A DNA stretch of 64,000 nucleotides, taken from the IMG/VR virus record IMGVR_UViG_3300037067_018977, one strand, 5' to 3'. Shown here piece by piece: positions 5,455 to 46,060 of this stretch. A model generated the notes under the pieces. It saw nothing but the letters and a program-made list of their open reading frames with translations. It did not search any database and had not been told where the DNA came from. The first letter of the stretch is position 1. The number at the start of each line of letters is the position of its first letter. Source of the stretch: an uncultured virus (IMG/VR IMGVR_UViG_3300037067_018977) (lineage: Duplodnaviria; Heunggongvirae; Uroviricota; Caudoviricetes). The position numbers were made by a program, and so were the translations under genes.

Positions 5455-6208
5455 CCTGACCGAGCAAGAACTGCTTGCAGAGACGTCCGCTTTCTGGCAG
5501 GCGGCCGCTCGGCGCGAGCAGAGCTGTCAACGCTGTCCCGAGCACGGCGGCGCATGCGCAGCAGAACTCGGTTGCTTGCCGCCAGGGAGCTACCTCGCGT
5601 GGATCGAGCGTCGCCCGCGTGCTCAAGCTTGCCAGCGTTGGACCGAGCACGAGCTACGCCAGCGTCTCGCTGAAGCCGGTGTGCCATTTCGACTGCAAGG
5701 CTGCCGCGCCGACACGTTTCAGGTGGATACTGACCAGCAACATCAGGCCCATCTCGAAGTCGGCGAGCTGGTCAAGCTGTGGACCAAATCCAGGGAGCTA
5801 CATTCCGGTAGCCCATGGATCGTTCTGTGCGGCTCGCACGGCACAGGCAAGAGTCACCTGCTCGCCGCCGCGCTGCGCACCGTGCGCCGCCTGCGCCCGG
5901 CGTTTCACGTTTGGTATCAGGACGCGACCGAGCTGGCCTCGTTGCTCCAAAACTTTTTCGACAACCGAGACACCACGCCGGATCCCATGGAGCGTCTGGC
6001 GGAGACCAGTCTGCTCGCATTCGACAACGTCGATCCTGGGAGTTGGAAACCGTGGCTTCAAAAGTCCGTCGAGGAGCTGCTCGTGCAGCGTTGGAATCGC
6101 GGGCTCGCTACCTTGTTGGCGACCCACCAAACTCCTGACGCACTGCTGCAAGCACTCAGGTCTCTCACAGAGCTACGTTCGGGGGCAGCGTGGTGCACGC
6201 TGGGATGA
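5303..6208 (+). CDS. DnaC/IstB-like AAA+ helicase loader
   Basis: Walker A GSHGTGKS, Walker B LLAFDN, N-terminal Cys cluster; start could be 5285. Confidence 0.85.
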   Translation: METMGSELTKLAQALQDTRQEDHHHLRVVVEQAGGAAAWLNSLGLGGHPADLTEQELLAETSAFWQAAARREQSCQRCPEHGGACAAELGCLPPGSYLAWIERRPRAQACQRWTEHELRQRLAEAGVPFRLQGCRADTFQVDTDQQHQAHLEVGELVKLWTKSRELHSGSPWIVLCGSHGTGKSHLLAAALRTVRRLRPAFHVWYQDATELASLLQNFFDNRDTTPDPMERLAETSLLAFDNVDPGSWKPWLQKSVEELLVQRWNRGLATLLATHQTPDALLQALRSLTELRSGAAWCTLG

Positions 6209-21490: not shown

Positions 21491-22733
21491 ATGCGAGCGT
21501 ATGGAAAGAAAGGCCGAGCAGCGCCGCCCGCGGAGCTGACGCGACGCCAGCGCGAAGCGTTGCTCGCCTATGCAGCGTACCACGGGCGCAACTGGAAGGC
21601 CGAGCTAGCCGGAGACTGGACCCGCGCTGCCGCCAACGTGGGCGGGGAGTACCGGGCGGAGCTGCAGCAGATCCGCAACACGCTCGGGCCGGCGTGGCTG
21701 AAGAAAGTCACGCTGGCGGAGATCCAGAGCGCGGCGCCCGGTGCGACCGAAAGCCTGGAGGACGCCATTCTGGAGCACGCGCGCGATCCGGTCGGCACGT
21801 TGCGACCGGGCATGAAGTTCGGGGACATGACGATCACCCAGGTGGGTACGCACACGGTGGTGTACCAGCGCCCCGGCGGCTGGCGCGGCTCGGTGCAGAT
21901 CCCGTTCCTCGATCCGGTCAGCGGTGTCGAGCTTCCGTCGCATCGGAGAGCGCTGGCGGAATTTGGGATGGAAAAGAATGCAGCGGACCCTCGCCGCCCA
22001 GTGCAGGAAGAGGTCCCCGGTACGACCCCGATCGCCAACGCGAGCGAGGTGGACTTCTTCGAAGACAACACCTTCGTGCGCGAGGGTCCGCTCTGGCTCT
22101 TCAGCTTCGGAGCCTACGGAGCGACCCACNNNNNNNNNNGTCTACGTCTGGGCGGACGGCATGGAGAGCGGGTTCGAGACGGCGGTGGAGTGGCTGGACG
22201 ATAACGCCCCTGGCCTGCTCGTGATGGTCGACGAGAACGACTACCGCCGTGCGGCGGAAGATCTCGGCAAGGTCTGGGATCCGAGCGAGCCGGACGACGA
22301 GATCATGCAAGCCGCCGAAGCGGACATGACGATGATCGGCCACACCACGCTCCAGCACGGCAACGCGGTGGCGAGCTGGGAGTGGCACGTGCGCGAGGTG
22401 AAGAAGGGCTCGCCCGAGTGGAACCAAGTGGTCGAGCGCTCGCGCGAGGAGAGCGGAGAGTTCGAAGAGAACGCTTCGAAATCGCAAAGCGTGGTGTTGG
22501 CGGCGCTTCGTGGGAAGAGCGCAAAAGCGGGGGCATTTCACACCGTCGGGGGCATCGTGTACTCGTACAACTTGCCCATCGCGGATCTGAGAAACCCAGA
22601 GGGACCCTTCTACGTGCTGGACAAGATTGCCTCACCCAGCGTCACAACGAGCAAGCACATTGGTTTCGTCCGAACGTGGCTGGCGCACATCAAGTCCTGG
22701 CTGCCCATCGAGACGGTGAGCGCAATCGGTTGA
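21491..22733 (+). CDS. multi-module hypothetical protein spanning an assembly gap
   Basis: Two ORF-track frames join across the N run at about 22130-22139. Confidence 0.6.
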
Positions 22734-22744
22734 AAGAGGACACC

Positions 22745-23254
22745 ATGCCACAACGACAACTCGGCTATCCGCTCTACCTCGACGGCAAGGAGGTGCACGG
22801 ACCGCTCACGCTGCACCACGGACCCACGCCCCCGCCTCCGATGCAGGGCATGGGAGAGTACTTCACCGAGCCCCTGGCGGGTCTCGGTCAGTCCACGCTG
22901 GAGCTGCCGGCCTACCAGATGCCGAGGCAGCGGCTCTCCTGGTGGAGCAAGGCCGCGCGCGTCTCGCCGCTGATGGGCGCGCTCGGGGAAGCTGCGGATG
23001 CGGCCGCCGAGCAGGTGAGCGCGCAGCAGCAAGGCAACCAGAAGGCGGCGCTGACGGCCGGCGCCGCGCTGGCGCTGGTGGGCGTGGGGCTGCTCATTCG
23101 CGGCGCCGCGGGCTACTACGCGGGCAAGGCGATGGCACCGAGCCGGGCGGACGCGGACAAGTACGCCTGGGGCGGAGTCGCCGCGAGCGTCCTACTCGGC
23201 TCGCTCGGGCTCGGCATCGAAGGAGTGATCGCGCTTCGAGCGCGGAAAGGCTGA
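22745..23254 (+). CDS. putative virion membrane protein
   Basis: GMGEYFTEPLAGLGQ, GALGE, two C-terminal TMs. Confidence 0.75.
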   Translation: MPQRQLGYPLYLDGKEVHGPLTLHHGPTPPPPMQGMGEYFTEPLAGLGQSTLELPAYQMPRQRLSWWSKAARVSPLMGALGEAADAAAEQVSAQQQGNQKAALTAGAALALVGVGLLIRGAAGYYAGKAMAPSRADADKYAWGGVAASVLLGSLGLGIEGVIALRARKG

Positions 23255-28725: not shown

Positions 28726-28974
28726 ATGTACGCGGGACTCGGTAACACCAACCTGGCAGTGGCAGTACGCGAAACGATGGTGATGCAGCTCTGCGTCGAT
28801 GCGGGGCGCCCCGGGAACGCTGCCTGCATTCAGCGCGCGCGCGAGCTGCTCGGCACCAAGTCGCGCGACGAAGTGATCACCGAGCTGCGCGAGGGCCCGA
28901 GCCGCAAGTGGCTTCTCTGGGGGGCGGTCGGCGCGGGCGTACTGGTGGTTGGCGCGCTCGTGTTGACGCGCTGA
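28726..28974 (+). CDS. putative virion membrane protein
   Basis: GGAGG SD; MYAGLG; C-terminal TM. Confidence 0.75.
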   Translation: MYAGLGNTNLAVAVRETMVMQLCVDAGRPGNAACIQRARELLGTKSRDEVITELREGPSRKWLLWGAVGAGVLVVGALVLTR

Positions 28975-29177
28975 TGCGCGGCTCCGAGTTGGCGCGCCGC
29001 CACGCGCGGCGCGAGAGGAAGCGCGCGCGGCGTCAAATCCGCGAGAGGGAGGACGCGCTACAGGCTCTGGCCGGGCCGCCCGACGGCGCGTTCATGCCGG
29101 CGGAGCAGTCGCATGTGGTTCTGTCGCTGCGGGTGTTCACGTGGTTTCAGAATTCCGTGAAAAACGCGCGAAAATAG
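28974..29177 (+). CDS. small protein carrying a copy of an internal segment of the intron-split capsid-like protein
   Basis: MPAEQSHVVLSLRVFTWFQN versus LPSDQSHVVLALRVFAWFRN in exon 2. Confidence 0.65.
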   Translation: MRGSELARRHARRERKRARRQIREREDALQALAGPPDGAFMPAEQSHVVLSLRVFTWFQNSVKNARK

Positions 29178-29313: not shown

Positions 29314-31365
29314 ATGGCACGAGTCGTTGGCAAAGCGTTCAAGATCACGAAGCAAGCGGCGCGGAATTACGGCTACGCCACGCCGAATTCTCCGCCGCCT
29401 GTGAGTGCGATTGCAGCCGTCAACGGCCGCGGAGCGTACGCGAAGCGTTCGGCTCGCGCCGCGATGCAGGGGTTGTCGCGCCCCGAGCGCAGCGCCCACG
29501 CGAAGAATCTCACCGCCGCCCAGCGCCGCGCTTTCGCGGATCGCATGGCGGCCGCCCGCGCAGCCAAGAGCGCGCGGCCAAGTAGTTCCCGAGCTGGTCG
29601 GAGCATGGTGCGCCCGAGCGGCTCAGGTCGGATCCCGGCGCGTACCCGCCCGGCGTCACCAGCAGCAACCGGAGGAAGCATGAAACGGAACACCTCGGCT
29701 GCGCAGCGACGGGCTGCGCTGGCCAACCTGAAGAAGGCGCGCTCTGCGCTCCGCGGAGGCCGCAAGAGCATGGCCTCGAATCGCAAGCGCCCGGGCCGCA
29801 AGACCCAGCGCAAGAACGCGCGGCGCAAGAGCATGCGTCGGAACGGCAAGCAGACGGCGGCCCAGCGGCGCGCGTCGCTCGCCAACCTGCGCAAGGCGCG
29901 CATGAAGCGGAACCGGAAGAGCACCCGCAAGGGCATGCGCAAGAACCGGCGTCGCAAGAGCATGCGTCGGAACGGCAAGCAGACGGCGGCCCAGCGGCGC
30001 GCGTCGCTCGCCAACCTGCGCAAGGCGCGCATGAAGCGAAACCGGAAGTCCACCCGCAAGGGCATGCGCAAGAACCGACGGCGCAAGAGCATGCGTCGGA
30101 ACGGCAAGCAGACGGCCGCGCAGCGGCGCGCGTCGCTCGCCAACCTGCGCAAGGCGCGCATGAAGCGGAACCGGAAAAGCAGCCGCAAGGGCATGCGCAA
30201 GAACCGCCGCAAGAGCATGCGTCGGAACGGCAAGCAGACGGCGGCGCAGCGGCGCGCGTCGCTCGCCAACCTGCGCAAGGCGCGCATGAAGAAGAACCGC
30301 AAGGGCGGGCGCAAGATGCGGCGCAACACCTGGCCGGGCGAACGCGCCCGTCATCGCAAGGCGGCCAAGAAGGGCTGGGCGAAGCGCGGGAAGCGGTACA
30401 GCGCAAACCGTCGCCGCGGCGGCAAGCTGTTCAAGAAGAACGGCTTCGTGCAGGGCATGGTCACCGTCTTCAAGGCCGGTGGGCTGACCCTGGCTGGCTT
30501 CGTGGCGCACAAGGCGCTCACGAAGGTCTTCTGCGACTTCGTGTGCGACAAGCTGTTCGGGGCCCCGGCCACGCCGGTCGCGCCGCCGACGCCTCCGGCC
30601 ACCAGCGGGCTCGACGCGCTGCAGCCCTACAAGGGGCTGATCGCGGGAGCGGTGGTCACCGGCGTGGGCATCTACGCGACCGACAAGCTCGTCAAGGACG
30701 TCCGGACGAAGATGTTCCTGACCACGGGCATGGCGGTGAGCTTCCTGCACACCTTGCTCGTGACCGCGCTCGCCAAGGCGGCTCCGCAGGCCGTCGACTA
30801 CCTGGCGGGCTACGAGGACGGCACGGCGGCGCGCCTGTCGGCCATGTACGGCCTCGGTGCTTCGATCCTGCCGCGCTACGCGCCGGTCAACGGTTTCGGT
30901 GAGTACCTCACCGCGACCAACGGCATGGGCGAGTACTTCTCCGAGCCCATGAACGGACTCGGTGAGTACTTCTCCGAGCCCATGAGCGGGCTGGGTGCCT
31001 ACACGGGCAACCCGGACCTCTACCAGGCGGCCGCCGGCTACGGCACGGTCGACTACGCGAACGGCAACCACATCGATCCCAGCTCCGATCTCGATCGCGA
31101 GCTGACGATCGTCGAGGCGGCCGCGGGCGTGGGTCAGCTGCCGGCGTACGAAGCCGCGGCCGGGTTCGGGCGCGTGCAGTCGTACGAGGCGGCTGCCGGC
31201 ATGGGTGCGATCAACACCGTGCCGCGCGCCGACACGTGGATCCCGGGCACCACCGACCCGCAGCTCTGGGCCGGCGTGCGTGGCGTCACCAAGCCGCAGT
31301 CGTCCACGGCCATGGTGCCGGCGGGCATCCTGCAGACCGACGGCGGAGGCGGCGTCTTCGGCTGA
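29314..31365 (+). CDS. Arg/Lys-rich (protamine-like) membrane-linked core protein
   Basis: Extremely basic repeats, hydrophobic segments, then G[FML]GEY repeats; alternative in-frame start at 29680 with GGAGG SD. Confidence 0.85.
   Translation: MARVVGKAFKITKQAARNYGYATPNSPPPVSAIAAVNGRGAYAKRSARAAMQGLSRPERSAHAKNLTAAQRRAFADRMAAARAAKSARPSSSRAGRSMVRPSGSGRIPARTRPASPAATGGSMKRNTSAAQRRAALANLKKARSALRGGRKSMASNRKRPGRKTQRKNARRKSMRRNGKQTAAQRRASLANLRKARMKRNRKSTRKGMRKNRRRKSMRRNGKQTAAQRRASLANLRKARMKRNRKSTRKGMRKNRRRKSMRRNGKQTAAQRRASLANLRKARMKRNRKSSRKGMRKNRRKSMRRNGKQTAAQRRASLANLRKARMKKNRKGGRKMRRNTWPGERARHRKAAKKGWAKRGKRYSANRRRGGKLFKKNGFVQGMVTVFKAGGLTLAGFVAHKALTKVFCDFVCDKLFGAPATPVAPPTPPATSGLDALQPYKGLIAGAVVTGVGIYATDKLVKDVRTKMFLTTGMAVSFLHTLLVTALAKAAPQAVDYLAGYEDGTAARLSAMYGLGASILPRYAPVNGFGEYLTATNGMGEYFSEPMNGLGEYFSEPMSGLGAYTGNPDLYQAAAGYGTVDYANGNHIDPSSDLDRELTIVEAAAGVGQLPAYEAAAGFGRVQSYEAAAGMGAINTVPRADTWIPGTTDPQLWAGVRGVTKPQSSTAMVPAGILQTDGGGGVFG
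29824..30300 (+). repeat. 129-bp (43-aa) tandem repeat, about 3.7 copies
   Basis: CGCAAGAGCATGCGTCGGAACGGCAAGCAGACGG starts at 29824, 29953, 30082 and 30208. Confidence 0.95.
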
Positions 31366-31551: not shown

Positions 31552-33873
31552 ATGGCCAAAGTCGTTTCGATCCGCGAGCGTGTTCATCAGCCTCAGAGAG
31601 GGGCCTGATCGGAGCAATCCGATCAGCAAACCGGGTGAATTCGGGGAAACCTACCGTGGGAGCGCGAGCTGCTACGGCAATCCCGAGCCAAGCCGACCGA
31701 AGGGTATTGAAGTAGGTCGGAAGGTGTAGAGGCCAAGCTGTGACGAACCCGTCGAATAAACAGCTCTTGAGCGCCCGGCATCCGCAGCCGAGGCAGTGGT
31801 TTGCCACCACTGTGGCAGCGGATGATGAGATGGTCCGATCCCCCGTGAAAGCGGGAGACAAATCGTTCTACGACACGCTCGTTCGCACTGCGGGCTTGAC
31901 GCCCGGAGCGCTGACCGACACCACGTCGCTCTTCACGAGCAACGGGGCACGCACGGAAGCCACCACCAACCTGATCAACGGCAGCACGCTGCCGTCGGAT
32001 CAGAGCCACGTGGTGCTCGCCCTGCGCGTCTTCGCGTGGTTCCGCAACCCGATTCTCCGCATCGCAGGCGGAGACGCTGGCGAAGTCGCCCTGAACGGCG
32101 ACTACGGTACGGTGGCCCCCTGGCTTGCGGGTGGTCCGGGTGCGGGTCAAGCGCCCGGCCAGATCCAGGACTACTACCGCCTGATCTGGCAGACCGAGGA
32201 ACAGTTGCACTGGTCAACTAAGGCCCCCTGCGTGCGTGAGCGCGCAGGTGCACTGGGTGAATTCGGGGAAACCCCTGCTGCGATCTGCAGCGAGGCAATC
32301 CCGAGCCAAGCCGACGGAAGCGAACACGCGCGCAAGCACGTGTGTACGTCGGAAGGTGTAGAGACTAGCTGTCGAGGATTCGCGTCCGATAAGGCAGCCA
32401 CGAGCGCCCAGCGTCTGCTCCGAGCAGATGAAGAGATAGTCCATGCCTGCGTGAAAGCGCAGGAAACACATGCTTTCGGTACGGGTCTCAAGAACTCCAT
32501 CGACAACATGCCCACGTGGTCAAACAAGGCCCCCGGCGCGCGTGAGTGCGCCGGTGTACCGGGTGAATTCGGGGAAACCCCTGCTGCATCGTGCAGCGAG
32601 GCAATCCCGAGCCAAGCCGACGGAAGCGAACACGCTCACAGCGTGTGTACGTCGGAAGGTGTAGAGACTAGCTGCCGAGGATTCGCGTCCGATAAGGCAG
32701 CCACGAGCGCCCGGCGACTGCAGAGAAGCAGCCGAAGAGATAGTCCGTGCCTGTGCGAAAGCACGGGACCAGCACGACTTCCCGGCCGGCGGCGGGATCA
32801 GCGGAGACAACGGTGCCTCCACGGATCTCATCCACTGGCAGAACTCGGGTACCGATGGGCATTCCGGAATCCTCCGCCTCAACTGAGGGGCCTTCGCAGC
32901 GTGAGCTGCGTCGAACAACGGGGTGAATTCGGGGAACGGCCTGCACGTGTCCACGTGCGACCCAATCCCGAGCGAAGCCACCAGCGAGCTTTTCGTGCTG
33001 GTGGAACGTGTAGAGAGCAGGGAGTGAGCTGGCTCAGCAATAAGCTCCCCACGAGCGCCCCGCATCTCCGAACCACGGAGATGGTGATGTGCTCCACGCC
33101 CATGCGAAAGCATGGGGATACGTGCGCGCGCGCGGTACTGATCCCGCCTCGGCAGAACATCCTCTGCGCGGCGAAGATCTTCGCGCTTCCGGACGGTGGA
33201 CAAGCGACGGTGTTCGGGACGACTCAGGGGAGCCGCAACATGCTCTCTCTGAAGGACAACCTGAACGCGGTCGACGCGGTGCAGAAGGTCAAAGGAAGGC
33301 CCTGCCACGGAGTGATCCGTGAGCAGCAACTGGGTGAATTCGGGGAAACCCCTGCTGCATCGTGCAGCGAGGCAATCCCGAGCCAAGCCGACGGAAGCGA
33401 ACACGCTCACAGTGTGTGTACGTCGGAAGGTGTAGAGACTAGCTGCCGAGGATTCGCGTCCGATAAAGCAGCCACGAGCGCCCGGCACCTGCTCGCAACA
33501 GGTGAAGATATAGTCCAACCCCCGTCGAAAGCCGGGACCAGGTTGCATCACCTTCACGTTCGACGGTCAACGCAGAGCTGCACTCGCAGCATGAGGCCGT
33601 CACGAAACCCACCTCAAACGGGGAAACCCTTCCAGGGCAATCCCGTGCCGAGCGCCAACGACGAGTTGGCGAAGGGCGTAGAGACTTCCGCAAGAGCCCA
33701 CCAGATGGTGCTGGGGCTCGAAGCGGTCAGCGGAGCAGGGGCAGAACCTGCGCTGCTGAACGGTGGGCGGATCCAGGCTGTGGCAACCACCACGGCGTCG
33801 AGGATCCGATGGGATAGTCCGAACCTGCCGGCAACGGCAGAACCATCCGCTCTTCAGCCGCGACGTGCAGTGA
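31552..33873 (+). CDS. putative major capsid protein (single jelly-roll-like), 250 aa, spliced: join(31552-31593,31866-32214,32473-32520,32777-32879,33125-33289,33546-33567,33850-33873)
   Basis: SD AGGAGAG; exons total 753 nt and give a stop-free frame MAKVVSIRERVHQP/FYDTL...LHW/SFGTG...PTW/YFPAGGG...ILR/LARAV...QK/VITFTFDG/LFSRDVQ*. Capsid identity is inferred from position and beta-rich composition. Confidence 0.85.
31594..31865 (+). ncRNA. group I intron 1 (272 nt)
   Basis: P1 GCCU|C:GGGGC with U-G pair; P GTGAATTCGGGGAAAC; Q CAATCCCGAGC; P7 GGCCA/TGGTC; P9.0 GAT/ATC; terminal G. Confidence 0.92.
32215..32472 (+). ncRNA. group I intron 2 (258 nt)
   Basis: P1 GGU|C:GGCC; R GTAGAGACTA; S AAGAGATAGTCC; P9.0 ATG/CAT; terminal G. 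Confidence 0.93.
32521..32776 (+). ncRNA. group I intron 3 (256 nt)
   Basis: Same core as intron 2; P9.0 GTG/CAC; terminal G. Confidence 0.93.
32880..33124 (+). ncRNA. group I intron 4 (245 nt)
   Basis: P1 GCCU|C:GGGGC; P7 covariant GAGCA/TGCTC; P3 CGGGG/CCCCG; P9.0 ACG/CGT. Confidence 0.92.
33290..33545 (+). ncRNA. group I intron 5 (256 nt)
   Basis: Canonical S element AAGATATAGTCC; core nearly identical to intron 3; P9.0 AAC/GTT. Confidence 0.93.
33568..33849 (+). ncRNA. group I intron 6 (282 nt, divergent)
   Basis: P1 GACGGU|C:GGCCGUC; CAAACGGGGAAAC and CAATCCCGTGCC; GTAGAGACTT / GGGATAGTCC; P3 CCCACC/GGTGGG. Confidence 0.88.
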
Positions 33874-36397: not shown

Positions 36398-36700
36398 GCC
36401 AGCCGAGCTGTCCTTGTCCGGAGTGCTGCATGTGCTTCGGGAAAGAGTGCTGCGAGCGCGACGCGATCGAGCGTCACGCCGAAACCCGCGCGCTGACGCT
36501 GGATGAAGCGTTGGCGATTGCGGAGCACGTGGCCATCGGAGAAGGCGCGCTTCCGGAGGCGGACTCATGACTATGGCGGCCTGCGCGCGAGGGGCATGGT
36601 GCCCCGGGCTCGTGGCTACAGTGGGGACCAAACAACCCTGCCAGATGCCACCGCTCGCTCCGATTCGTGAGCAGGCTGCCGCCCTTTTTCGAGGTGAGCG

Positions 36701-37477
36701 ATGACTCTCGGCGCCTACTACAAGACGGAATACAACCAGCCGATCGGCGGCCTGGGTGCGTACTACCGCAACACCGAGAACTGGCGCATCGCGCCGGCCC
36801 AGGACGGGCTCGGGCAGACGCCCACGCCGGTGAGCTTCGCGGAGCACGCGCTCGAAGAGACGCTCGCCGCGGTCTCGAAGGGACAGCTCGTTGCGCCCTG
36901 GGCCGAGCGGCAGGGCGACGTGGACTGGGTGGACATCCCGGTCCCTTCTGAGAGCTACCTGCTTTACCCGCTCACCGACAAGCTTCTCGCGACCGCGAAG
37001 GCCGCGAGCTACGGGCACGAGCCGAACTGGTGCGCGATCCTGGCGCCCAAGCCTGCGCTGATCTCCGCCGTGGACGCGGCGCTCACCGGGCGGCCGTACC
37101 GGCTCGCCAGCACGCAGGGCGTGTACGCCGAGACCGACACGCGCCCGGTGCCGCAGCCGCTGGTGCTGTACTGGCTGGAGCTGCGCGACGATCCGCACGA
37201 CCTGCAAGGCGGCCAGGGCAGCCTGGAAGCGGCGGCGAAGCAGCTCGGAGGCCAGCTGGTCTTTCCGATGCCCACGCCGCGCCGGGGCGACGAGCGCGCT
37301 CAGCCGGACATCGACTTTCAGACGGCCATCGGCGTGGCGCGCTCCCCCACCGCCCCGGTGCCCGTGAGCCCGCAGACCGCGGCGGCCGCCGCCGGCTCGG
37401 GCCGCTGGCTCTGGGTGGTGGGCGCGGTCGGCGTCGGCTACCTCGGCTGGCGCTGGTGGAAGGGACGGAAGGGCTGA
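36701..37477 (+). CDS. putative virion membrane protein
   Basis: LGAYY x2, DGLGQ, C-terminal TM plus basic tail. Confidence 0.75.
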   Translation: MTLGAYYKTEYNQPIGGLGAYYRNTENWRIAPAQDGLGQTPTPVSFAEHALEETLAAVSKGQLVAPWAERQGDVDWVDIPVPSESYLLYPLTDKLLATAKAASYGHEPNWCAILAPKPALISAVDAALTGRPYRLASTQGVYAETDTRPVPQPLVLYWLELRDDPHDLQGGQGSLEAAAKQLGGQLVFPMPTPRRGDERAQPDIDFQTAIGVARSPTAPVPVSPQTAAAAAGSGRWLWVVGAVGVGYLGWRWWKGRKG

Positions 37478-37695
37478 TGGCGAAACTGGATGTGATGGCC
37501 AGAGAGATGGTCGGAGATGGAAAAAATCCGAACCTCTATTTCGTGAGCGACACGTCGCATGTGCTCGCGTGTTTCACAAGAAAACAGGACGCAGTAGATT
37601 TCGCAATGTTAGTCGGAGCGGACATCGTGGAAGATCGACTCCACGGAGAAGTTTGGGGCAGCGAACTGTATTATGCGTCGCAGCCAAGAGACTGA
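37477..37695 (+). CDS. hypothetical protein (lower GC)
   Basis: TGATG coupling. Confidence 0.55.
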   Translation: MAKLDVMAREMVGDGKNPNLYFVSDTSHVLACFTRKQDAVDFAMLVGADIVEDRLHGEVWGSELYYASQPRD

Positions 37696-37703
37696 AAAGC
37701 GCC

Positions 37704-38081
37704 ATGGCACGTCGCGAAGCTCTCCAATTTTTCTACCGGTACTCCGGTTATTCGGCGCCCGCGGGTGCAACCAAGACCGAGAAGGAAAAACAGCGGCGCC
37801 TCAACGCTCGCGCGCTCGCGGAAGCCGAAGCCGAGGCTGAAGAGCGGGGCTGGGAATGCACCTGGGAGGATGATCCGGAAGGCTACGAGCGAGGTGACTG
37901 GCCTGCCGAACCGGAGGTTCCGAGCGAGGTGCTGTGGGTCGCGCTGCGGGACACAGACGGCCGAGTGCTTGCATCGCTGGGGAGCATCGGGATGAGCGGC
38001 AACCTTGCCGAAGACCGGCGGTACGGTCGGGTCATCGAAGCAGAGCTGGCGCTCGAAGCGCTGGTGGAGATGAAGAAGTAA
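37704..38081 (+). CDS. hypothetical protein
   Basis: Protein-like ORF. Confidence 0.6.
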   Translation: MARREALQFFYRYSGYSAPAGATKTEKEKQRRLNARALAEAEAEAEERGWECTWEDDPEGYERGDWPAEPEVPSEVLWVALRDTDGRVLASLGSIGMSGNLAEDRRYGRVIEAELALEALVEMKK

Positions 38082-38236
38082 TGGCACGACGCATCGTCGC
38101 AGTGAGCGGAACGCCCGACGGGCTCGGGCAGGGGGAGAGCCAGATCATGTACGTGGCCTGGTTGGGCATCATCGGCATCGCGGGCCTCTTGCTCTGGGCC
38201 ACGGTGCAACCTCCGAAGAGCAGCCGGCGAGGGTGA
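38081..38236 (+). CDS. small virion membrane protein
   Basis: DGLGQ then TM. Confidence 0.65.
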   Translation: MARRIVAVSGTPDGLGQGESQIMYVAWLGIIGIAGLLLWATVQPPKSSRRG

Positions 38237-38240
38237 GCGC

Positions 38241-38477
38241 GTGGAGTTCACGGCGAGCCCCAGCGATCTGATCCGCGCGGTGCAGGCGGCGCGGGAGATC
38301 GACGCCAACCCGGTGACGCTGGCGGGCAAGCTCATTGGCCTCGGCGCTGACGAGCAGGAAGCGGGGATCCCGAGCTGGGCATGGATGACGGTGGCCCTCG
38401 GGCTCGGGCTCTACCTCGGAGTCCGCTACGGAACGGAAGTGCGCCAGAAGTTGCGGCGCGTGGCGGACGGCGGATAG
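38241..38477 (+). CDS. small membrane protein
   Basis: IGLGA, IPSWAW TM. Confidence 0.7.
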   Translation: MEFTASPSDLIRAVQAAREIDANPVTLAGKLIGLGADEQEAGIPSWAWMTVALGLGLYLGVRYGTEVRQKLRRVADGG

Positions 38478-38507
38478 AACAGATCAACCCCAGAGGAGAA
38501 CAGAGCC

Positions 38508-38891
38508 ATGTCGAGTCCCGTCGTTGCCGGAGCCATCACCAGCGTCTGCGTGGATGGCGGTGATGCCGCCGAGCTGCAGACCCGTGTACGCGCGGCGCTC
38601 GCCGCGGCCGCGGGCGGATCGGTGATCGCGGACTGTCGGATCGCGGGCACGGGCGTGGGTCCTCGCTGGCTCGCGGAGTTGCTGTTCACGGACACGCCGT
38701 ACGTCGGCGGAGCCGCGGCGGCGCTGACCGCAGCGTACTGCGTGCAGGGCGGCGATCCGGCCGAGCTGAATCAGCGCATCCAGGCGATCCTGTCCCTCCC
38801 GAACCAGACCTACATCGCGGTCGAGATCGCGGGAGCCGGAGCGGGCCGTGACTACATGGCGCTCATCCTGCAGGAGACTGGAATCGCCTGA
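38508..38891 (+). CDS. hypothetical protein made of two internal repeats
   Basis: CVxGGDxAELxxR...IAGxGxG twice; GAGGAG SD. Confidence 0.75.
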   Translation: MSSPVVAGAITSVCVDGGDAAELQTRVRAALAAAAGGSVIADCRIAGTGVGPRWLAELLFTDTPYVGGAAAALTAAYCVQGGDPAELNQRIQAILSLPNQTYIAVEIAGAGAGRDYMALILQETGIA

Positions 38892-38914
38892 ACGGCGAGT
38901 TGAAGGAGCCACCG

Positions 38915-39250
38915 ATGATTTCCGCAGACTACCGCGACGGGATCTTCAGCCAGGCGACGCCCGCGGCGGCGTACGGCAGCAAGCTGACCCAGTACAACGA
39001 CGGGTCGCTCGGGGGCTGCGCGGCGTGCGCAGGCGGCTTGGGCGATGCCGGCAAGTCCTTCCGCGACGGGATCTTCAGCACCTCGACGCCGAAGGCGGCC
39101 TACGGAGGCGGCATGCAGGCCTACTCGGACGGGTCGCTCGGAGCGCTCGACAGCGCCCAGATGGTCAAGTACGCTCTCGGCGCGCTCATCGTCGGCGGCA
39201 TCCTGTACGTCACGTTCGGGAAGAAGGGCCGGGGTCGGCGTAAGGGCTGA
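38915..39250 (+). CDS. putative virion membrane protein
   Basis: RDGIFS..AAYG..DGSLG twice; C-terminal TM. Confidence 0.75.
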   Translation: MISADYRDGIFSQATPAAAYGSKLTQYNDGSLGGCAACAGGLGDAGKSFRDGIFSTSTPKAAYGGGMQAYSDGSLGALDSAQMVKYALGALIVGGILYVTFGKKGRGRRKG

Positions 39251-39252
39251 CC

Positions 39253-39858
39253 TTGCCGGACGGGATCCTCGAAGCACTCGGACGCATGGCGTCCGGCATG
39301 CAGTTTGTGCCACCTGGCACGCCCGGCCGCGTCTGGGAGGAGCTGCGTCCTTGGCTCGCGAAGCTCGCGCTGCACGCTGCGCCCAAGTGGGTGCCGCGGC
39401 TTTCGTTCGGATTCCCGTGCAAGATCCCGGTGTACGTCGAGGGCACGCCCATCGGCCCCTGCCGGCGCGTGGCCGTGGGCGTCTGCGAGGTCTGCTCGGC
39501 GCCCTGCTGCCTGGACCACAGTCGGATCGATCAGTACGGGGACGCGATCTGCTACCTGTGCATCGCCGAGGCCATCCGCACGCGCCGTGTGGTGGGTCCG
39601 CGTCCGGGCCACGCCGCGCCTCCCGGAAAGCCGCCGCCGGCCGCAGAGGAGCAGCGCTGGGCTCGTAAGCTCCTGGACGTGACCGAGGACACCCCCTGGG
39701 AGGAAGTGCGCTCAGCGCACCGCAAGCTCAGCGCCAAATGGCATCCCGACGTGCACCGGGGCGAGAAGGCGAAGGCGCGGGCCGAGGCGAAGTTCAAGGA
39801 CGTACAGCGCGCGCTCGACGTGCTGAGTCGTGCCCGCGCGGCCCAGGAGGCGGCATGA
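39253..39858 (+). CDS. J-domain (DnaJ-like) protein with Cys-rich N-terminal region
   Basis: EEVRSAHRKLSAKWHPD...AEAKFKDVQRALDVL. Confidence 0.88.
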   Translation: MPDGILEALGRMASGMQFVPPGTPGRVWEELRPWLAKLALHAAPKWVPRLSFGFPCKIPVYVEGTPIGPCRRVAVGVCEVCSAPCCLDHSRIDQYGDAICYLCIAEAIRTRRVVGPRPGHAAPPGKPPPAAEEQRWARKLLDVTEDTPWEEVRSAHRKLSAKWHPDVHRGEKAKARAEAKFKDVQRALDVLSRARAAQEAA

Positions 39859-40032
39859 TCCAGTTCGAGTGGAAGGACGACCCGATGTACCCGCTGATCT
39901 GCCAAAAATGCGGCACGCTCCACTGCCGGCGCCACCGGTTGCACATGCTTTGGCTTCGGCTGAAGTGGCTGGTTTCCTGAAGCGCACCAAAAGTGGACGC
40001 TCGGCGCCGGCCGGCGATAGCCTGGTCGGGTC

Positions 40033-40311
40033 ATGAGCTACATCCAGGTGCGGCCCGGGTTCTATGGAATGCTGCAGGCGGACAGCCCCTGGGCCCCCGG
40101 CGCTCCCGGCTGGTCGAGCGCCCCGGTCCCCATGTGGGGCAACAACCCGAACCTCCGCGGCCCCGCGATGCTCGCCACGCACGGCTTCGGGCAGGAGTCC
40201 GTGAGCACGCCGGTCAAGGCGTTCACGATGCTCGCCTTCGGGGCGGTGGCGCTCGGTGCCCTGTGGTGGGGAGCGAGAGAGCTGGGCAAGCAGCAGGGCG
40301 GGAGACGCTGA
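40033..40311 (+). CDS. putative virion membrane protein
   Basis: MSYI start, HGFGQ, TM. Confidence 0.7.
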   Translation: MSYIQVRPGFYGMLQADSPWAPGAPGWSSAPVPMWGNNPNLRGPAMLATHGFGQESVSTPVKAFTMLAFGAVALGALWWGARELGKQQGGRR

Positions 40312-40577
40312 TGTACCAAGCGCTCGGCATCAGCTACCCGATCACGCTGCCCGTCGTCGGCAAGCAGAACATCGATGTCCCGGTGGACAGGATGAGCCAG
40401 GACGCGATCAACGCAGCCTGGCCCGTGCTGAAGGCGCGGCTCGACAAGGAGCTGCCGGGCATCATCGCCAAGAGCGCACCGGCTGCGATGACGCAGCTCC
40501 GGAGCCAGCTCATGGTTGCGGTGGCGATTCACCTGGCGGCGATCGGCCTCGCGGCGCTCTGGATCAAGAAGGGCTGA
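40311..40577 (+). CDS. putative virion membrane protein
   Basis: MYQALG, C-terminal TM plus KKG. Confidence 0.7.
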   Translation: MYQALGISYPITLPVVGKQNIDVPVDRMSQDAINAAWPVLKARLDKELPGIIAKSAPAAMTQLRSQLMVAVAIHLAAIGLAALWIKKG

Positions 40578-40580
40578 CTC

Positions 40581-40727
40581 GTGAGCTACCACCCGACGCT
40601 GGGCGAGATTACCAGGAAGCCGCCGGCTTCCGCGGTGGTGATGCCTCTCTTTCTGGTGGGCGCCGTGGGTATCTTCCTCTACATCTTCCGCAAGGAAGTC
40701 TTCGCGCCGCAGCGCAAGGCGGCGTGA
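40581..40727 (+). CDS. small virion membrane protein, 48 aa
   Basis: Not in ORF track; MSYHPTLGE...PLFLVGAVGIFLYIFRK. Confidence 0.65.
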   Translation: MSYHPTLGEITRKPPASAVVMPLFLVGAVGIFLYIFRKEVFAPQRKAA

Positions 40728-41161
40728 TGCACGGCTGTCGCGAGGTCCGTTTCCCATCCGGTCACCGCGCGGTGATGTGCGGTGATCCACGCACCTGGCA
40801 CCTTCCGATGCCGGGACCGGCTCCGGGGCAGTGTGCGGACGGGTCAGGCAACTGGCTCCCGTTGCGTTTCCCGGATGGATCGTGGAAGCCAGTGTGCCCG
40901 AGCGATCCGCTCTGGCCGCTCGCTCTCCGCCAGAACCCGCGCGCGCTCGGAGAGCTGTGTCCGCCGTGCACGATTCCGGTTGGGACGGAGTGCACGCCCT
41001 GCCCGCCGGGCGCCGAAGAGACGATGCCGGAATGCGAGGGCTGTGTCGGGGGCCGGGCTCCCGGGCCCAGTTTCTGGGAGCGCTCCCAGTTTTTGTTGCC
41101 GGTGATGGTTGGCGTAGCTACCACGCTGGCGGTGACCTGGCTCAGCAAACGCTTCGGTTGA
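40727..41161 (+). CDS. Cys/Pro-rich membrane-anchored protein
   Basis: RALGE, Cys repeats, C-terminal TM. Confidence 0.65.
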   Translation: MHGCREVRFPSGHRAVMCGDPRTWHLPMPGPAPGQCADGSGNWLPLRFPDGSWKPVCPSDPLWPLALRQNPRALGELCPPCTIPVGTECTPCPPGAEETMPECEGCVGGRAPGPSFWERSQFLLPVMVGVATTLAVTWLSKRFG

Positions 41162-41186
41162 CAGCACTGCTGTCGCCGTGCAATCT
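41158..41186 (+). promoter_or_regulatory. promoter TTGACA-N17-CAATCT with overlapping palindromic operator
   Basis: TGACAGCACTGCTGTCG at 41159-41175. Confidence 0.6.
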
Positions 41187-41192
41187 CGGTTG

Positions 41193-41597
41193 GTGACCAC
41201 CGAGACGGAGCTGACACTCGTGCGGGCTTTGGAACGCGCGCTCAGCGACGATCCGGAGCAACGCGCGGACGCACGGCGAACGCTCCGGCTCTACCACCTG
41301 AACCCCAACGTCACCGAGTGCACCCTGGAGACGTTCCGGGAAGTGCTGATAGGCAAGTCATCCGTGTACTTCAGGTTTCTGATGCCACCAGGGGCGACAG
41401 GCACGGGAGTGCGCGTTGCTATCGAGAGCGTCGGAGAGAGCCAAGAAGAGATCCTGCATGCCGTCCTGGCGGGTGCGGGGATCACCCAAGCAATCATCGT
41501 CGCACGACAGGGAGAGCTTGTGACGGTGATCGTGACTCAAACGGGTGAGCGAGCCCGCCGGGTGCGAGTGGAGTTCATGGGACGCCGGGAAGTGTGA
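41193..41597 (+). CDS. hypothetical protein
   Basis: GTG 6 nt below -10. Confidence 0.6.
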   Translation: MTTETELTLVRALERALSDDPEQRADARRTLRLYHLNPNVTECTLETFREVLIGKSSVYFRFLMPPGATGTGVRVAIESVGESQEEILHAVLAGAGITQAIIVARQGELVTVIVTQTGERARRVRVEFMGRREV

Positions 41598-41806
41598 TGG
41601 CGCGCCTAACCCATCTCCGAAATCGGGTGCACCAACCCTTTTACGATACGCTCGTGGAGCTGATGAAGGGAGAGACGCTAGACCTGCTGCTCGCGAGGCT
41701 CTATGGCGAATCTGAAGCGCAAAGGATTCTTGAGGATCCAGAGGCGCTAGGGCTTGCGCGCGCCATGCTTTGCCTCGGAGGCTACACATGGCGAGAGAAG
41801 GAATAA
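41597..41806 (+). CDS. small protein whose N-terminus copies the spliced capsid-like protein N-terminus
   Basis: LRNRVHQPFYDTLV versus IRERVHQP/FYDTLV. Confidence 0.7.
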   Translation: MARLTHLRNRVHQPFYDTLVELMKGETLDLLLARLYGESEAQRILEDPEALGLARAMLCLGGYTWREKE

Positions 41807-42003
41807 CCAGCGAGTCGCGCATGGTGCACCAACAGATCACGCTCGACACGGAGCAACGGGAGCGCCTACGAGTGTTGTCCGAGCGGACCCGGGTACCGCA
41901 AAGCGTGTTCATTCGGGAAGGCATCGACGCCATCTTGGAGCTGGCGGAAAACAACGGAAAACTGGCCAAGGAAGTGCGCGTGCTGATCCAGCGCTCGACC
42001 TGA
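41788..42003 (+). CDS. ribbon-helix-helix DNA-binding protein
   Basis: QITLDTEQRERLRVLSERTRVPQSVFIREGID. Confidence 0.82.
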   Translation: MAREGITSESRMVHQQITLDTEQRERLRVLSERTRVPQSVFIREGIDAILELAENNGKLAKEVRVLIQRST

Positions 42004-42045
42004 CGGCATTGACAGCAGGGGCGCCCCGCAGTAGCCATCGGAGCG

Positions 42046-42252
42046 ATGGCGCTGTGCGACGAAGACAGTCAGCTGGTGGAGGACTTCGAGGCAGCGGAGG
42101 CCAAAGCGAAGCGGCTGGGGCTGTCGTTCGTGGTGTGGAACGCGCAGGTGTATGTTTTGGAGCGCCGCGGGAAGGATGTGCACGATCGGTGGCTTCGTCG
42201 GTGGCTTCGGATGGCCACGGACGTAGAGGTGGCGCTGTGGGGGTCACTATGA
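42046..42252 (+). CDS. hypothetical protein
   Basis: Below TTGACA-N17-TAGCCA promoter (42009-42037). Confidence 0.6.
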   Translation: MALCDEDSQLVEDFEAAEAKAKRLGLSFVVWNAQVYVLERRGKDVHDRWLRRWLRMATDVEVALWGSL

Positions 42253-42457
42253 CGCTCGCCGAGCTGCCGTGTCCGTGCTGCGGTAAGCCAACCAGTAAGT
42301 TAGCTGTGCTGCGAAACGAACAGCTTTCGCGCCAGGCCGCCGTGGTGGAAGCCCGGGAGCGCTTGGCGCGCATTCCTGTTCATCAAGTGGAGCGCGTCGA
42401 GGTGGACCAGCGCCAGCTGTACGAAGCCCGCGCGCGGCTTGCAGAGATGGAGGCCAC

Positions 42458-42817
42458 GTGACTACAGAGTATCGAGAGAAGCGCCATCACTACGTGATGG
42501 AGGGGAAGGGGCGCGATGCCCTGAACCTCACCGAGGTCATGGCGCGCGACACGGAGACAAGCGGGGCTCTCTTCGTGCTGGAGAAGCTGATCGCAGAGAT
42601 CCGTGAACGGCTGGCGGCCGAGCACGAGGCTTATACCGCGTGCTCCGGCTATCCCAAGGCCTTGGCGGCACACGCGATCAAGCGCGGAGAGGTTACGCTG
42701 GGCCGGTTGAGTTTCGTTCATCACGAACTCACCATCTTCGAAGAAGAAGTAGAGAAACGCAGTCCGCTGTACGTCGACCCCGCGGACTACCCCACCGATC
42801 TGGAGCCCTACGAATGA
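42458..42817 (+). CDS. hypothetical protein
   Basis: GGAGG SD, GTGA coupling. Confidence 0.6.
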   Translation: MTTEYREKRHHYVMEGKGRDALNLTEVMARDTETSGALFVLEKLIAEIRERLAAEHEAYTACSGYPKALAAHAIKRGEVTLGRLSFVHHELTIFEEEVEKRSPLYVDPADYPTDLEPYE

Positions 42818-43428
42818 CCGAGCCGAAGAAAGAGCTGGAGGTGCCGCGCTCCGTCTGGGTGCGCGGCGGCACCACGAGTGGTGCGCACGATCGCCAGGAG
42901 CAGAAGCGGCTCTACGAGGCCGAGCAACGGCGGAGTCAACAGGAGGCCGAGATGCGCGCTCCGACGACGGGGATCTTGCCTCAGCATCTTCGGGACAAGG
43001 AGCTGCAGGGCGATGCTCCCGGCCACGCGAAGATGTCGAGCATGCGCCTCGGGTCGAGTCACGGGCATGCCTCGATCGTGCTCGGGCTCAAGCACCCCAA
43101 GGACGGGGAAATTCTGGACTGGGTGATCTGTGAGTTGATCGTGCAGCCCGATGAGCTGATCCTGAACCTCGCCTGCCCGCGTTGTGCTGCGAGCGGCGAG
43201 ACGGATCGCGTGCACGACCAGAACATCAAGGTGCACCAGAAGAACCGGATGTTTTGGCTCGACACGCGGCGCCAGGGGGAAGTCTGGGTCAACCCGAACG
43301 ACGCGAACGAGCACTACATCCTGGCCGGCACGATTACGAGCCAGGACTGGATGACCTGTCCCAACCGGGGGTGCGGGTGGAAGTTCAGGATCGAGGATTC
43401 GGTAGTGCACACATGGAGACCGGCGTGA
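42814..43428 (+). CDS. hypothetical Zn-binding protein
   Basis: CPRC ... CPNRGC. Confidence 0.65.
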   Translation: MTEPKKELEVPRSVWVRGGTTSGAHDRQEQKRLYEAEQRRSQQEAEMRAPTTGILPQHLRDKELQGDAPGHAKMSSMRLGSSHGHASIVLGLKHPKDGEILDWVICELIVQPDELILNLACPRCAASGETDRVHDQNIKVHQKNRMFWLDTRRQGEVWVNPNDANEHYILAGTITSQDWMTCPNRGCGWKFRIEDSVVHTWRPA

Positions 43429-43618
43429 CCGCGCGGCGCGGGAGTTGGCTCCTGCACGCGATGGTGGGGCTCTACCTGGTTGCGCTCGGTGTGATGGCGC
43501 TGATTCTGGTCTACCCGGACATGAACGCTGTCACGTTGGGTGTGCTTGCACTGGCTTATTCGCTGGCGTACATCGGCGCAGCGCTGTGCGAGCGCCGGAT
43601 GAAACAGGAGCGTACCTC

Positions 43619-43936
43619 ATGAACCGCCTGGAACGTCGCCGTCGCATGAAGCAGATGCGCATGAAGGTGCTGCGCGGGGGCAAGCCGGCGAGCGCTCCCC
43701 AGCTGGACACGTCCGAGCCGGCGGGCCTGCTCGCGAAGAAGCTGGACGGCTTCGTGCGCGACCAGTGCGCCGCCGATCCTCGCCTCGATCCATCCACCGT
43801 GCTCGCGGTGCTGCTCCAGCTCTCTGCGGCCCTGATCGTGGAGCTGAATGCTCCGGAGGCCGAGGTCTTTCAGGCGCTGGAGACGTTCACGGCGAACGAG
43901 CGGCAAGCCCGCAAGCTGCCGGAGCCGCCGGCATGA
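43619..43936 (+). CDS. hypothetical protein
   Basis: MNRLERRRR start, AGGAG SD. Confidence 0.6.
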   Translation: MNRLERRRRMKQMRMKVLRGGKPASAPQLDTSEPAGLLAKKLDGFVRDQCAADPRLDPSTVLAVLLQLSAALIVELNAPEAEVFQALETFTANERQARKLPEPPA

Positions 43937-44446
43937 GCCGAAAGAGGATCACGGCGGACTTCAACGCGCGGTTGGATGACGAGAAGTTTGTGGTGCGTCT
44001 GGGGGCTAGCCAAGTGAACGAGGTTGGGGGCGTGACGGACGGAGAGTTTGTCGAGCTGTGCGACGGAGAAGTACTGGCGTGGGCCACCGTGCGCGCGCGG
44101 AACGGGGCGTTCGTGGCCGAGGTGGTCGACTGGGTGCTCCGCGGAGAACGAACATGAGCCTGGTGTTCCGGACGGTGTTCGTGGTGGTCTACCACGACGG
44201 CGGCTGCCCCGAGGAAGGCTGTCCCCCGAGCAACGAGATGGCGTATCTCGCGTGGAGCAAGCACGAAGCCGCGGACTTCATCGAGCGGTGCAAGCGGCGG
44301 TCCGACTCGCGGTGGGAGAAGATGGAGATCAGGGAGCACACCGCGCTGGTGGACCCACACAAGGCCGTGGACCCGGACACGGGATTCGATGAGGCTTTGC
44401 TCGTGGAGCCGCTGTCGATGGGACCCCAACCCGGCTGGAAACGAAC

Positions 44447-44902
44447 ATGACCACCTATCAGCTGGATCCTAGCCCGGTGCGGGAGTTCACGAGCAGAGAG
44501 ATCGCGAAGATCATCGGCGTGCAGCTCGGTTACTTGGCCGGGGTGACGCTGGGAACTGCCAAAGCCACCGGCACCGTGATCACGCAGGAGGAGCTGTTTG
44601 GTAGCATGCAGACGGCGCTGCGCCTGGCGATGGAGATGGTCACCGAAGGCGGCAATCTGGAGAAGCTGGGGGACATCATCGCGCAGAACGAGCGGGTTGC
44701 CGTGGTCATGGTGCCCGTTCTGGGGATGGTGATGGATCTCGACAACTGCACGCCGGAGGCGGCGCGCACGGCGCTCGGGTGGTGGGCGGAGCACGAAACG
44801 GCGCTCGCGAGCTTGTGCGCCATGAGCATCGGGAAGTTCAGCGCGAACGCCGCTGTCTACGACCGGTTGTTCGAACAAGTCCGGCAGCAGCGGAAGGCGT
44901 AA
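44447..44902 (+). CDS. hypothetical protein
   Basis: ATGA coupling. Confidence 0.6.
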   Translation: MTTYQLDPSPVREFTSREIAKIIGVQLGYLAGVTLGTAKATGTVITQEELFGSMQTALRLAMEMVTEGGNLEKLGDIIAQNERVAVVMVPVLGMVMDLDNCTPEAARTALGWWAEHETALASLCAMSIGKFSANAAVYDRLFEQVRQQRKA

Positions 44903-45479
44903 GGCATGGCCAAGATCAAGAGCATCGTGTGCCACTGGTGCGGGGAGCTGATCTGGTCTGCCGAGTGGACGTTTGCGCAGCAACAGGCTGCTGAGGAAAA
45001 TGAGCGACGTGGCATCACGCACGCCTGTGAGCGCCAGCGCCAGGAGCGTGCTTTACGAGTGCTCGGTGGAGCAGGCCGATGAATCCTTCCCTGGTCTGCG
45101 AGGTGCTCGGCTACGGCCTGCCGCGCGGCAAGGTAATGGGCGTATTCAGCGGCGGCGGCGATGGTAGCATCACAATTCAGGGGCGCCTCGAAGGGACCTC
45201 GGGCCAGATTGCTCGCTGGAGCAAGGAGATCCGGGAGCGGTGCTCTACCCCGGACGGCTTTACCCTGGCAGCGCGTGACGAGCCTATTCGGCTGAATGCG
45301 TCGCGCTTGGGTTTTTGGATCTACTTGACGTGCCAGGATGAGTTGATCCGGCACAGCGTGAAGGAGGAACACCAGAACCCGGTCTGTCAGCTCTCGCTGC
45401 AAAGCAGAACGCAGTTGGCTGCTTTGCTCGGGGTGAGCGGGTTCGATGAACGGAGCGGCTTCCAGAAGGTCGAGCAGGC

Positions 45480-45779
45480 ATGACCGAGCTGATGGTCGGA
45501 GCGCTTGGGGGCCTTGTGGGAGCCGCCTTCTGGCACGGGCTGGTGATGCTCTGGCGCCGCAAGCGGTTCGTGGTGCGCACGCGAGAGATGGTGCTCGAAA
45601 GCCCAGACGTTGTGGAAATCCCGGGTCCGGATTCGGTGAAGGCCATGTGGTCGCAACCGCCAGGTGCGCTCTTGCATGGTGAGCCGGGGCAGATGGTGTT
45701 TCGTCCCGCGCCCCGGCGCAAGATCAAGAAGCTGTCCCAGCGGGAGAAGGCCTTGCGTGCGCTGCGAGGTGGATCATGA
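45480..45779 (+). CDS. membrane-anchored hypothetical protein
   Basis: N-terminal TM; ends KALRALRGG. Confidence 0.6.
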   Translation: MTELMVGALGGLVGAAFWHGLVMLWRRKRFVVRTREMVLESPDVVEIPGPDSVKAMWSQPPGALLHGEPGQMVFRPAPRRKIKKLSQREKALRALRGGS

Positions 45780-46060
45780 CCAAGGTGTCGACGGTGACAG
45801 GCTTGCTTCTGTGGGACATGGGGACGGTGTGCCCGGCGCTGATGCTGGCGTTGGCGAAGGGGACAGTCGTGTCACTTCTGCTGACTCAGGGACTGGCAGC
45901 AACCGGCTTTTTGACGCTGTGGGGCGTCGGGCTCGTGCTTCAAGTCGCGAGCTGGCGAAGATTTCGGAGAGAGCAAGCGCTTGCGGCGCTCGCTGGAGAC
46001 GTCGCCCGCTCACAAGGGTTTTGGGAGTGGCAGCTCAACCAGCGAGACCTGTGGCTCTGA
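45776..46060 (+). CDS. small membrane protein
   Basis: TMs then WRRFRREQALAALAG. Confidence 0.6.
   Translation: MTKVSTVTGLLLWDMGTVCPALMLALAKGTVVSLLLTQGLAATGFLTLWGVGLVLQVASWRRFRREQALAALAGDVARSQGFWEWQLNQRDLWL

Follow-up and report, generated by a model that had tools for sequence, protein, structure and literature searches.

Capsid-derived sequence is turned against related viruses by Fv1 and other restriction factors derived from retroviral Gag, which differ from the small viral gene described here in being host-encoded, eukaryotic and built of large domains. Closer in scale are two satellite proteins that interfere with capsid assembly: SaPI CpmB, which has a short motif in common with the phage scaffold protein (accessible text of PMC6893505), and Rcm, a small accessory scaffold mimic (accessible text of PMC12409344). 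A capsid-derived gene that serves conflict between mobile elements is also on record, the Ccm of SaPIbov5 (accessible text of PMC6893505). In the viruses SH1 and HCIV-1, one capsid protein reaches over to its neighbour and straps onto it through an N-terminal extension, as described in the accessible parts of PMC6441041 and PMC6414509. The phage decoys described in the accessible text of PMC12409349, Ocr among them, act as DNA mimics or nucleotide sponges, and none is a capsid fragment. In a literature consisting mostly of open-access articles without their supplements, we found neither the virus family considered here nor a capsid-fragment fusion gene.

We analysed a stretch of 64,000 nucleotides from an uncultured virus (IMG/VR IMGVR_UViG_3300037067_018977), hereafter the window, which carries a short gene that begins like the capsid-like protein of the same genome (Table 1). 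Residues 1-22 of its product are homologous to the capsid start, four protein clusters keep both this start and the domain that follows, and the cassette in which the gene lies is outside the conserved structural block.

Table 1. Positions of the small gene, its neighbours and the capsid-like gene in the window.
Feature	Position	Strand	Remarks
Small gene, 69 aa	41597..41806	+	capsid-like residues 1-20/22 fused to a domain of about 45 residues that matches no known family
Capsid-derived segment	41597..41656	+	N-terminal arm and beginning of first strand in the capsid model
Upstream ORF, up to 139 aa	41178..41597	+	start possibly GTG at 41193; stop overlaps start of the small gene
Promoter-like TTGACAGC motif with overlapping perfect 7-1-7 palindrome (41160-41174)	41158..41186	+	candidate promoter/operator
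Ribbon-helix-helix (RHH) gene	41788..42003	+	Pfam RHH_3; GGAGG ahead of ATG
Second TTGACAGC motif and three further small ORFs of the inserted cassette	42009..42817	+	
Second capsid echo, 67-aa ORF, TGATG-coupled	28974..29177	+	C-terminal part matches capsid profile positions 54-81
Capsid-like gene, 7 exons, 250 aa	31552..33873	+	six group I-type introns
Capsid exons	31552-31593, 31866-32214, 32473-32520, 32777-32879, 33125-33289, 33546-33567, 33850-33873	+	
Intron 1, group I	31594-31865	+	Rfam RF00028, 79 bits

A capsid-like start on an unrelated domain

The initial annotation, made from the sequence alone, had described the small ORF as an echo of the capsid-like protein across the junction of exons 1 and 2, with synonymous divergence. 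Both observations hold: ORF residues 8-20 agree with the spliced capsid at 12/13 positions, nine of these 12 shared residues are specified by a different codon, and over residues 1-20 identity to the window's own spliced capsid is 14/20. Matches of at least 12/13 are expected 1.6e-10 times in the six frames of the window (3e-6 when corrected for about 21,000 query positions), and the top match of shuffled queries (n=200) was 8/13. When the small family was compared with 39 capsids by hhalign, positions 1-22 alone aligned, with a probability of 98%, and the small gene is thus not a whole-capsid paralogue of the Ccm kind. The remainder of the protein had been called unrelated sequence ending in AMLCLGG. 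It does lack any relation to the capsid, as the C-terminal parts score against the 39 capsid bodies like shuffles (fractions 0.29-0.81), but it runs for seven more residues beyond AMLCLGG and is a conserved domain, not a sequence unrelated to everything. The further idea that the C-terminus copies the last strand of the capsid was unsupported, with 14% of 3000 shuffles scoring equally and an hhalign probability of 0.1%.

The ATG of the ORF overlaps the stop of the upstream ORF in the sequence TGATG, and its 3' end overlaps the RHH gene; one gene caller placed the start at residue 20 (P0002). A single Logan contig of 4631 bases, from the probable source run, covers the cassette with one difference, outside the ORF, which argues that the ORF is not an assembly join, the contig being of the same source and not independent biology. 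Logan contigs from four of the nine listed runs were compared with window positions 36500-46000. Low-depth, near-identical short pieces of this interval occur in three other runs (wetland, landfill and estuary records), and among the matches listed these pieces leave the 41597-41806 ORF uncovered.

Conservation of the small gene

A phmmer search of 1.84 billion representatives returned four matches: a fragment of the protein itself, P0004 (68 aa, 52% identity, E 5.5e-9), P0005 (66 aa, 41% identity, E 1.8e-7) and a LysM-repeat protein, P0006, which was matched at E 1e-6 through weak repeats added together. Two more members, P0008 (50%) and P0007, the latter almost identical to P0004, came from cluster and profile searches. 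The three further clusters (P0004/P0007, P0005 and P0008) share 40-52% identity, measure 66-73 aa and are known here as protein sequences alone. In all homologues the capsid-like segment comes first and the common C-terminal part follows, and the C-terminal parts are homologous when compared without the capsid segment (Smith-Waterman z 16-38, beating all 5000 shuffles in 6/6 pairs). Pairwise identities amount to 73/114 in residues 1-19 versus 123/240 in the C-terminal part. The residues R10, V11, H12, P14, F15 and T18 are retained in all four clusters, which at position 16 have Y, W, F and F, the same aromatics that occupy it in 51 of 56 capsid starts. The copied stretch contains seven positions that are invariant across all 56 capsid starts; four invariant capsid residues, E9 (2/4 clusters), Q13 (1/4), D17 (3/4) and L19 (2/4), vary within the small family.

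Conservation had been put forward in the initial annotation as the check on its proposal, and it was found: full-length homologues exist, in which the rest of the protein is no more conserved than the capsid-like start. The suggestion of a retained capsid peptide is supported by the joint retention of the two parts, and the other suggestion made at the time, a captured relic, is unlikely in view of the intact homologues and the conservation of the start. We regard the gene as real, conserved and apparently undescribed, and the functions proposed for it below as putative.

Pfam, PHROGs, NCBIfam, PADLOC, PDB and ESM Atlas yielded no family match for the gene, and word-indexed searches that started from this one ORF recovered nothing beyond the ORF itself. 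When P0005 and P0004 were sought in viral contigs, 0/11 and 0/28 candidates, respectively, were confirmed. A DNA pattern for the C-terminal domain matched 0 loci, a pattern for the N-terminus matched 13 (11 capsid genes and two chance matches), and a metagenome scan gave, among the matches listed, at least 40 loci, made up of 39 capsid starts and one chance match; counted among these, tentatively, is L045, a truncated start of 52 aa close to a contig end. Each of the four loci from a genome scan matched over the N-terminal 20-22 residues only, and GenBank phages and plasmids held no match better than E 0.6. None of the 27 related records contains the gene, and 10 of these records have a completeness of 90% or more; the count draws in part on a genome search that covered 14 of 28 loci. 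Two candidates were set aside: P0003, listed in the P0002 cluster, is an unrelated protein of 430 aa, and P0009, in which an unrelated tail follows a capsid start, probably represents a disrupted capsid gene and is excluded from the homologues.

The capsid-like gene and the origin of the segment

The capsid-like gene has a coding sequence of 753 bases, which in the window is divided by six introns of 245-282 bases that contain no ORF; the shortest exons are 22-24 bases. The exon/intron map was derived from intron-less relatives, and the gene is uninterrupted in all 24 related viral records (38-182 kb). At every one of the six introns a U precedes the 5' splice site and a G stands at the intron end, and their removal leaves an open frame of 250 aa that is identical to the product of intron-less L006 at 208 of 250 residues; three of the six pass Rfam. 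The boundary of intron 1 in the initial annotation, for which the small ORF had been cited as independent support, is correct, and the intron-less relatives show it better than the echo does. The coding sequence of a distant capsid gene (L057:10001-11100) is broken after roughly codon 42, in a different position, by what, judged by eye, resembles a group I intron. One related record (G017) carries a tandem pair of capsid-type genes (L110:3001 and 4352), whose products measure 397 aa (with large insertions) and 258 aa.

The capsid-like protein has no sequence match in Pfam, PHROGs or PDB. A predicted structure of the L006 relative (83% identical; 39 sequences) is a single jelly roll (pLDDT 72.9, pTM 0.73), whose top fold matches were the SPV1 capsid, with 139 residues aligned at an rmsd of 3.3 (Z 7.6), and P23-77 VP17 (Z 6.6), both below the caution line of 8; the best Foldseek match, at E 0.044, was to the same virus as one of these. 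The gene probably encodes a single-jelly-roll capsid protein, an assignment that fold scores under 8 leave probable rather than proven. Residues 1-10 are of low confidence in the model, and residues 15-22 form the first long strand. The presence of DnaB, of TTGACA motifs and of overlapping genes indicates a virus of bacteria; the DnaB helicase (window 6190-8883) carries a LAGLIDADG intein.

The segment in the small gene agrees with the capsid starts of another clade (L002, L003 and L092) at 16/20 residues, versus 14/20 for the local capsid, and at the DNA level its best agreement with other capsids is 41/60 versus 36/60 with the window's own. Against 39 capsid 5' ends, pS was 0.64-1.08 and pN 0.15-0.36. 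Pairs of capsids themselves have a median pS of 0.73, so synonymous divergence alone is no proof of selection, which the protein family provides. The segment does lack an intron, as the initial annotation stated, but intron loss is not the reason, for it is closer to the intron-less capsids of other clades. The same comparison largely rules out a retro-copy of the spliced capsid mRNA. The simplest history would be one old fusion in which the donor was an intron-less allele, with no need for reverse transcription. The GC3 of the small gene is 0.64, versus 0.84 in capsid exon 2.

Genomic setting of the small gene

The genes flanking 41158-42817 have adjacent homologues in L007, L013 and L084, which indicates that the six small ORFs between them are an insertion. 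The RHH neighbour named in the initial annotation was readily recovered (43.4 bits to RHH_3 versus a cut-off of 21.6, E 3e-11), and this gene is present in three of 24 related records. The accompanying description of the unit as operator-controlled stands in so far as a perfect 7-1-7 palindrome overlaps TTGACA (41158-41174); a consensus promoter scan of 40500-44500 found 0 sites, and control of the unit is putative. The TTGACAGC motif occurs five times in the window versus 1.1 expected, twice within the cassette (41158 and 42009), and in the close relative L007 it stands directly ahead of the next conserved gene at the same junction. The palindrome family has 10 matches versus 4.3 expected, a number reached in 0/100 shuffles. 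TTGACA was not found near capsid or core-protein starts in the window, and we infer that the cassette is a non-late unit. A promoter-operator-like motif of the form TTGACAGC / GACAGC..GCTGTC recurs at window positions 3923, 5530(-), 41158, 42009, 48433 and 60321. Other records have different genes near this junction: L009 encodes a 646-aa protein with a Cas12f1-like TNB domain (L009:16594-18534), and L012 a NikA-like protein.

A second capsid echo and a capsid-matching spacer

In the six frames of the window, a capsid profile recovered five exon matches and exactly two others, the small gene (E 2e-8) and the ORF at 28974-29177 (E 3e-7). The latter agrees with the local capsid at 15/23 residues, 8/15 of them through different codons, and with other capsids at up to 16/23 residues and 51/69 nt. 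An arginine-rich start precedes its capsid segment. It forms a singleton cluster, and limited searches of viral contigs found no relatives. In 24 relatives the same profile found no such echo ORF; its only further matches were the additional capsid gene of G017 and, in G013, a short piece in antisense orientation.

The antisense piece in G013 is a CRISPR spacer, part of a small repeat array that adjoins the capsid gene. This array (L100:1033-1254) has five repeats of 19-20 bases and four spacers, two of which agree perfectly (32/32 and 25/25) with the capsid gene of the same virus or with its 3' end. The spacer corresponding to capsid nucleotides 16-47 agrees with G013's own gene at all 32 positions and with that of the window, once spliced, at 28/32, where it spans the site of intron 1. 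Since this spacer covers the copied stretch, the stretch is contested at the DNA level too. The capsid introns, of which intron 1 splits the spacer-matched site, may shield the gene from DNA targeting. We rejected the idea that the echo acts at the DNA level as a decoy for this G013 spacer, as the two agree at only 20/32.

Discussion

We suggest, with a probability of about 0.38, that the small protein is an early-made mimic of the capsid arm that competes for the docking site of that arm, and blocks or delays assembly of the shells of relatives or sets the timing of its own. A single fusion would have placed a small domain behind the beginning of a capsid gene of the family, the two being kept as a unit since. 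The protein would be made early, from the TTGACAGC promoter. By analogy with vertical single-jelly-roll viruses, the N-terminal segment of the capsid protein would be an inter-subunit docking arm, and a small protein that displays this arm without the capsid body could fill the site of the arm on capsid subunits. Shell assembly would then be blocked or delayed, most plausibly in co-infecting relatives, and the virus may possibly control its own timing in the same way.

The closeness of the segment to another capsid clade fits a foreign or broad target, and together with the patchy distribution, the accessory slot and the non-late motif it favours interference or assembly timing. Several observations count against an arm mimic. 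The four relaxed residues that are invariant in capsids argue against strict mimicry, residues 15-20 are predicted to be a core strand of the capsid rather than a free arm, an inhibitor so similar to the virus's own capsid would require a shut-off or some selectivity, and the absence of the gene from all 27 related records was counted on the same side. Taking the two echoes together, we would propose more tentatively that this undescribed virus family grafts single conserved capsid segments onto short carriers, which would be made early as dominant-negative weapons against the shells of relatives or as decoys for immunity that senses capsids, a protein-level arm of a conflict. This proposal draws on the two different capsid segments in one genome, and the same conflict would be visible in the six introns and in the capsid-targeting CRISPR spacers of a relative.

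Other readings explain part of the same evidence. The 5' end of a capsid gene could have been captured as a ready start and beta-strand for a new small fold with a function unrelated to the capsid, which we consider doubtful, and foremost among the alternatives. It would account for the presence of the capsid-like start in every detected homologue of the C-terminal domain, as if the two co-fold, and for the relaxation of E9, Q13, D17 and L19, and the second echo illustrates that capsid pieces do reach small ORFs in this genome. A faint LysM/Tail-X-like pattern in the middle of the protein also points this way (Pfam Tail_X at E 0.13 in 1/5 members), but the LysM likeness has an hhalign probability of only 5.9%, or 0.9% without the window's own protein. 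The capsid segment is moreover conserved as much as the C-terminal part or more, and residues 1-10, which are poorly ordered in the capsid model, are kept as well. Anti-defence genes are typically patchily distributed and sit in accessory slots, as this gene does, and a slightly more doubtful reading is that an early protein binds a host factor that recognises the capsid start (an immune sensor, a protease or a chaperone) without triggering it. The virus may be unable to mutate away from such recognition, the copied stretch holding the seven positions that never vary among 56 capsid starts, and bacterial immunity directly triggered by capsid proteins is described for CapRel in the accessible text of PMC9712102. 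On the other side, this virus family has no known host or sensor, a faithful epitope could itself activate the sensor, and the accessible literature searched yielded no capsid-fragment decoy.

The arm might instead serve as a docking tag through which the small domain, as cement or cargo, is incorporated into the shell of the virus itself. HCIV-1 has small helical proteins beneath its capsomers (accessible text of PMC6414509), and a GMGEYF-type motif is common to two window proteins (29314-31365 and 22382-23254), which is in keeping with a minor virion protein; the first of the two is a basic, repeat-rich, core-like protein. We consider this role unlikely, as the gene lies outside the structural block, in a cassette behind a motif that does not occur near capsid or core-protein starts, and is missing from the related records, including the 10 with a completeness of at least 90%. 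Least probable by far is a neutral relic or a retro-copy of the spliced capsid message. A relic would be consistent with the low GC3, with synonymous saturation, which is also typical of pairs of capsids, and with the gene call that begins at residue 20; it is hard to reconcile with intact full-length homologues at 40-52% identity, a coupled start and an overlap with the next gene, and neither version fits the fact that other clades match the segment better than the local gene does.

A separate, conserved gene that carries a 20-residue piece of the capsid suggests a binding site worth attack or defence. If the arm mimic is an assembly blocker, it would amount to a compact, naturally occurring inhibitor of capsids and reveal a new way in which viruses interfere with one another; if the protein is a decoy, it would be a missing counter-measure to capsid-sensing immunity and a bait for the sensor. 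Both readings are testable by co-expression, with no need for virus culture. Gene fusions of this motif size escape gene callers, one of which started this ORF at residue 20, and database searches, in which 20 residues are never significant.

Comparison with known systems

Like CpmB and Rcm, the small gene combines a small carrier with a short motif taken from a protein of virion assembly, its activity here being putative. Those proteins are satellite-encoded and mimic the scaffold of HK97-type helpers, whereas here a self-sufficient virus with a predicted single-jelly-roll capsid copies the capsid itself, and a search for sequence likeness of the small protein to CpmB or Rcm found none. The capsid-like gene of the window is complete (250 aa) and is accompanied by a conserved structural block and a DnaB helicase, so this is no capsid-less satellite of the kind that encodes the remodellers CpmB, Rcm and Sid. 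Unlike Ccm, which keeps a whole capsid-like fold, the small gene keeps 20-22 of about 250 residues, on an unrelated domain. The nearest fold matches to the donor, the SPV1 capsid and P23-77 VP17, are modest in score and have no sequence match with it. The predicted arm of the donor capsid would resemble that of VP7 in SH1 and HCIV-1, in which an N-terminal extension docks on a neighbouring subunit, and differs in that the accessible text of PMC6441041 and PMC6414509 describes no free-standing copy of the VP7 strap. Capsid sensing by CapRel (PMC9712102) and decoys of the Ocr type, so far as the accessible texts describe them, together provide a rationale for a decoy of a capsid epitope. The capsid-fragment small gene would be kin to known assembly-motif mimicry and is itself apparently undescribed.
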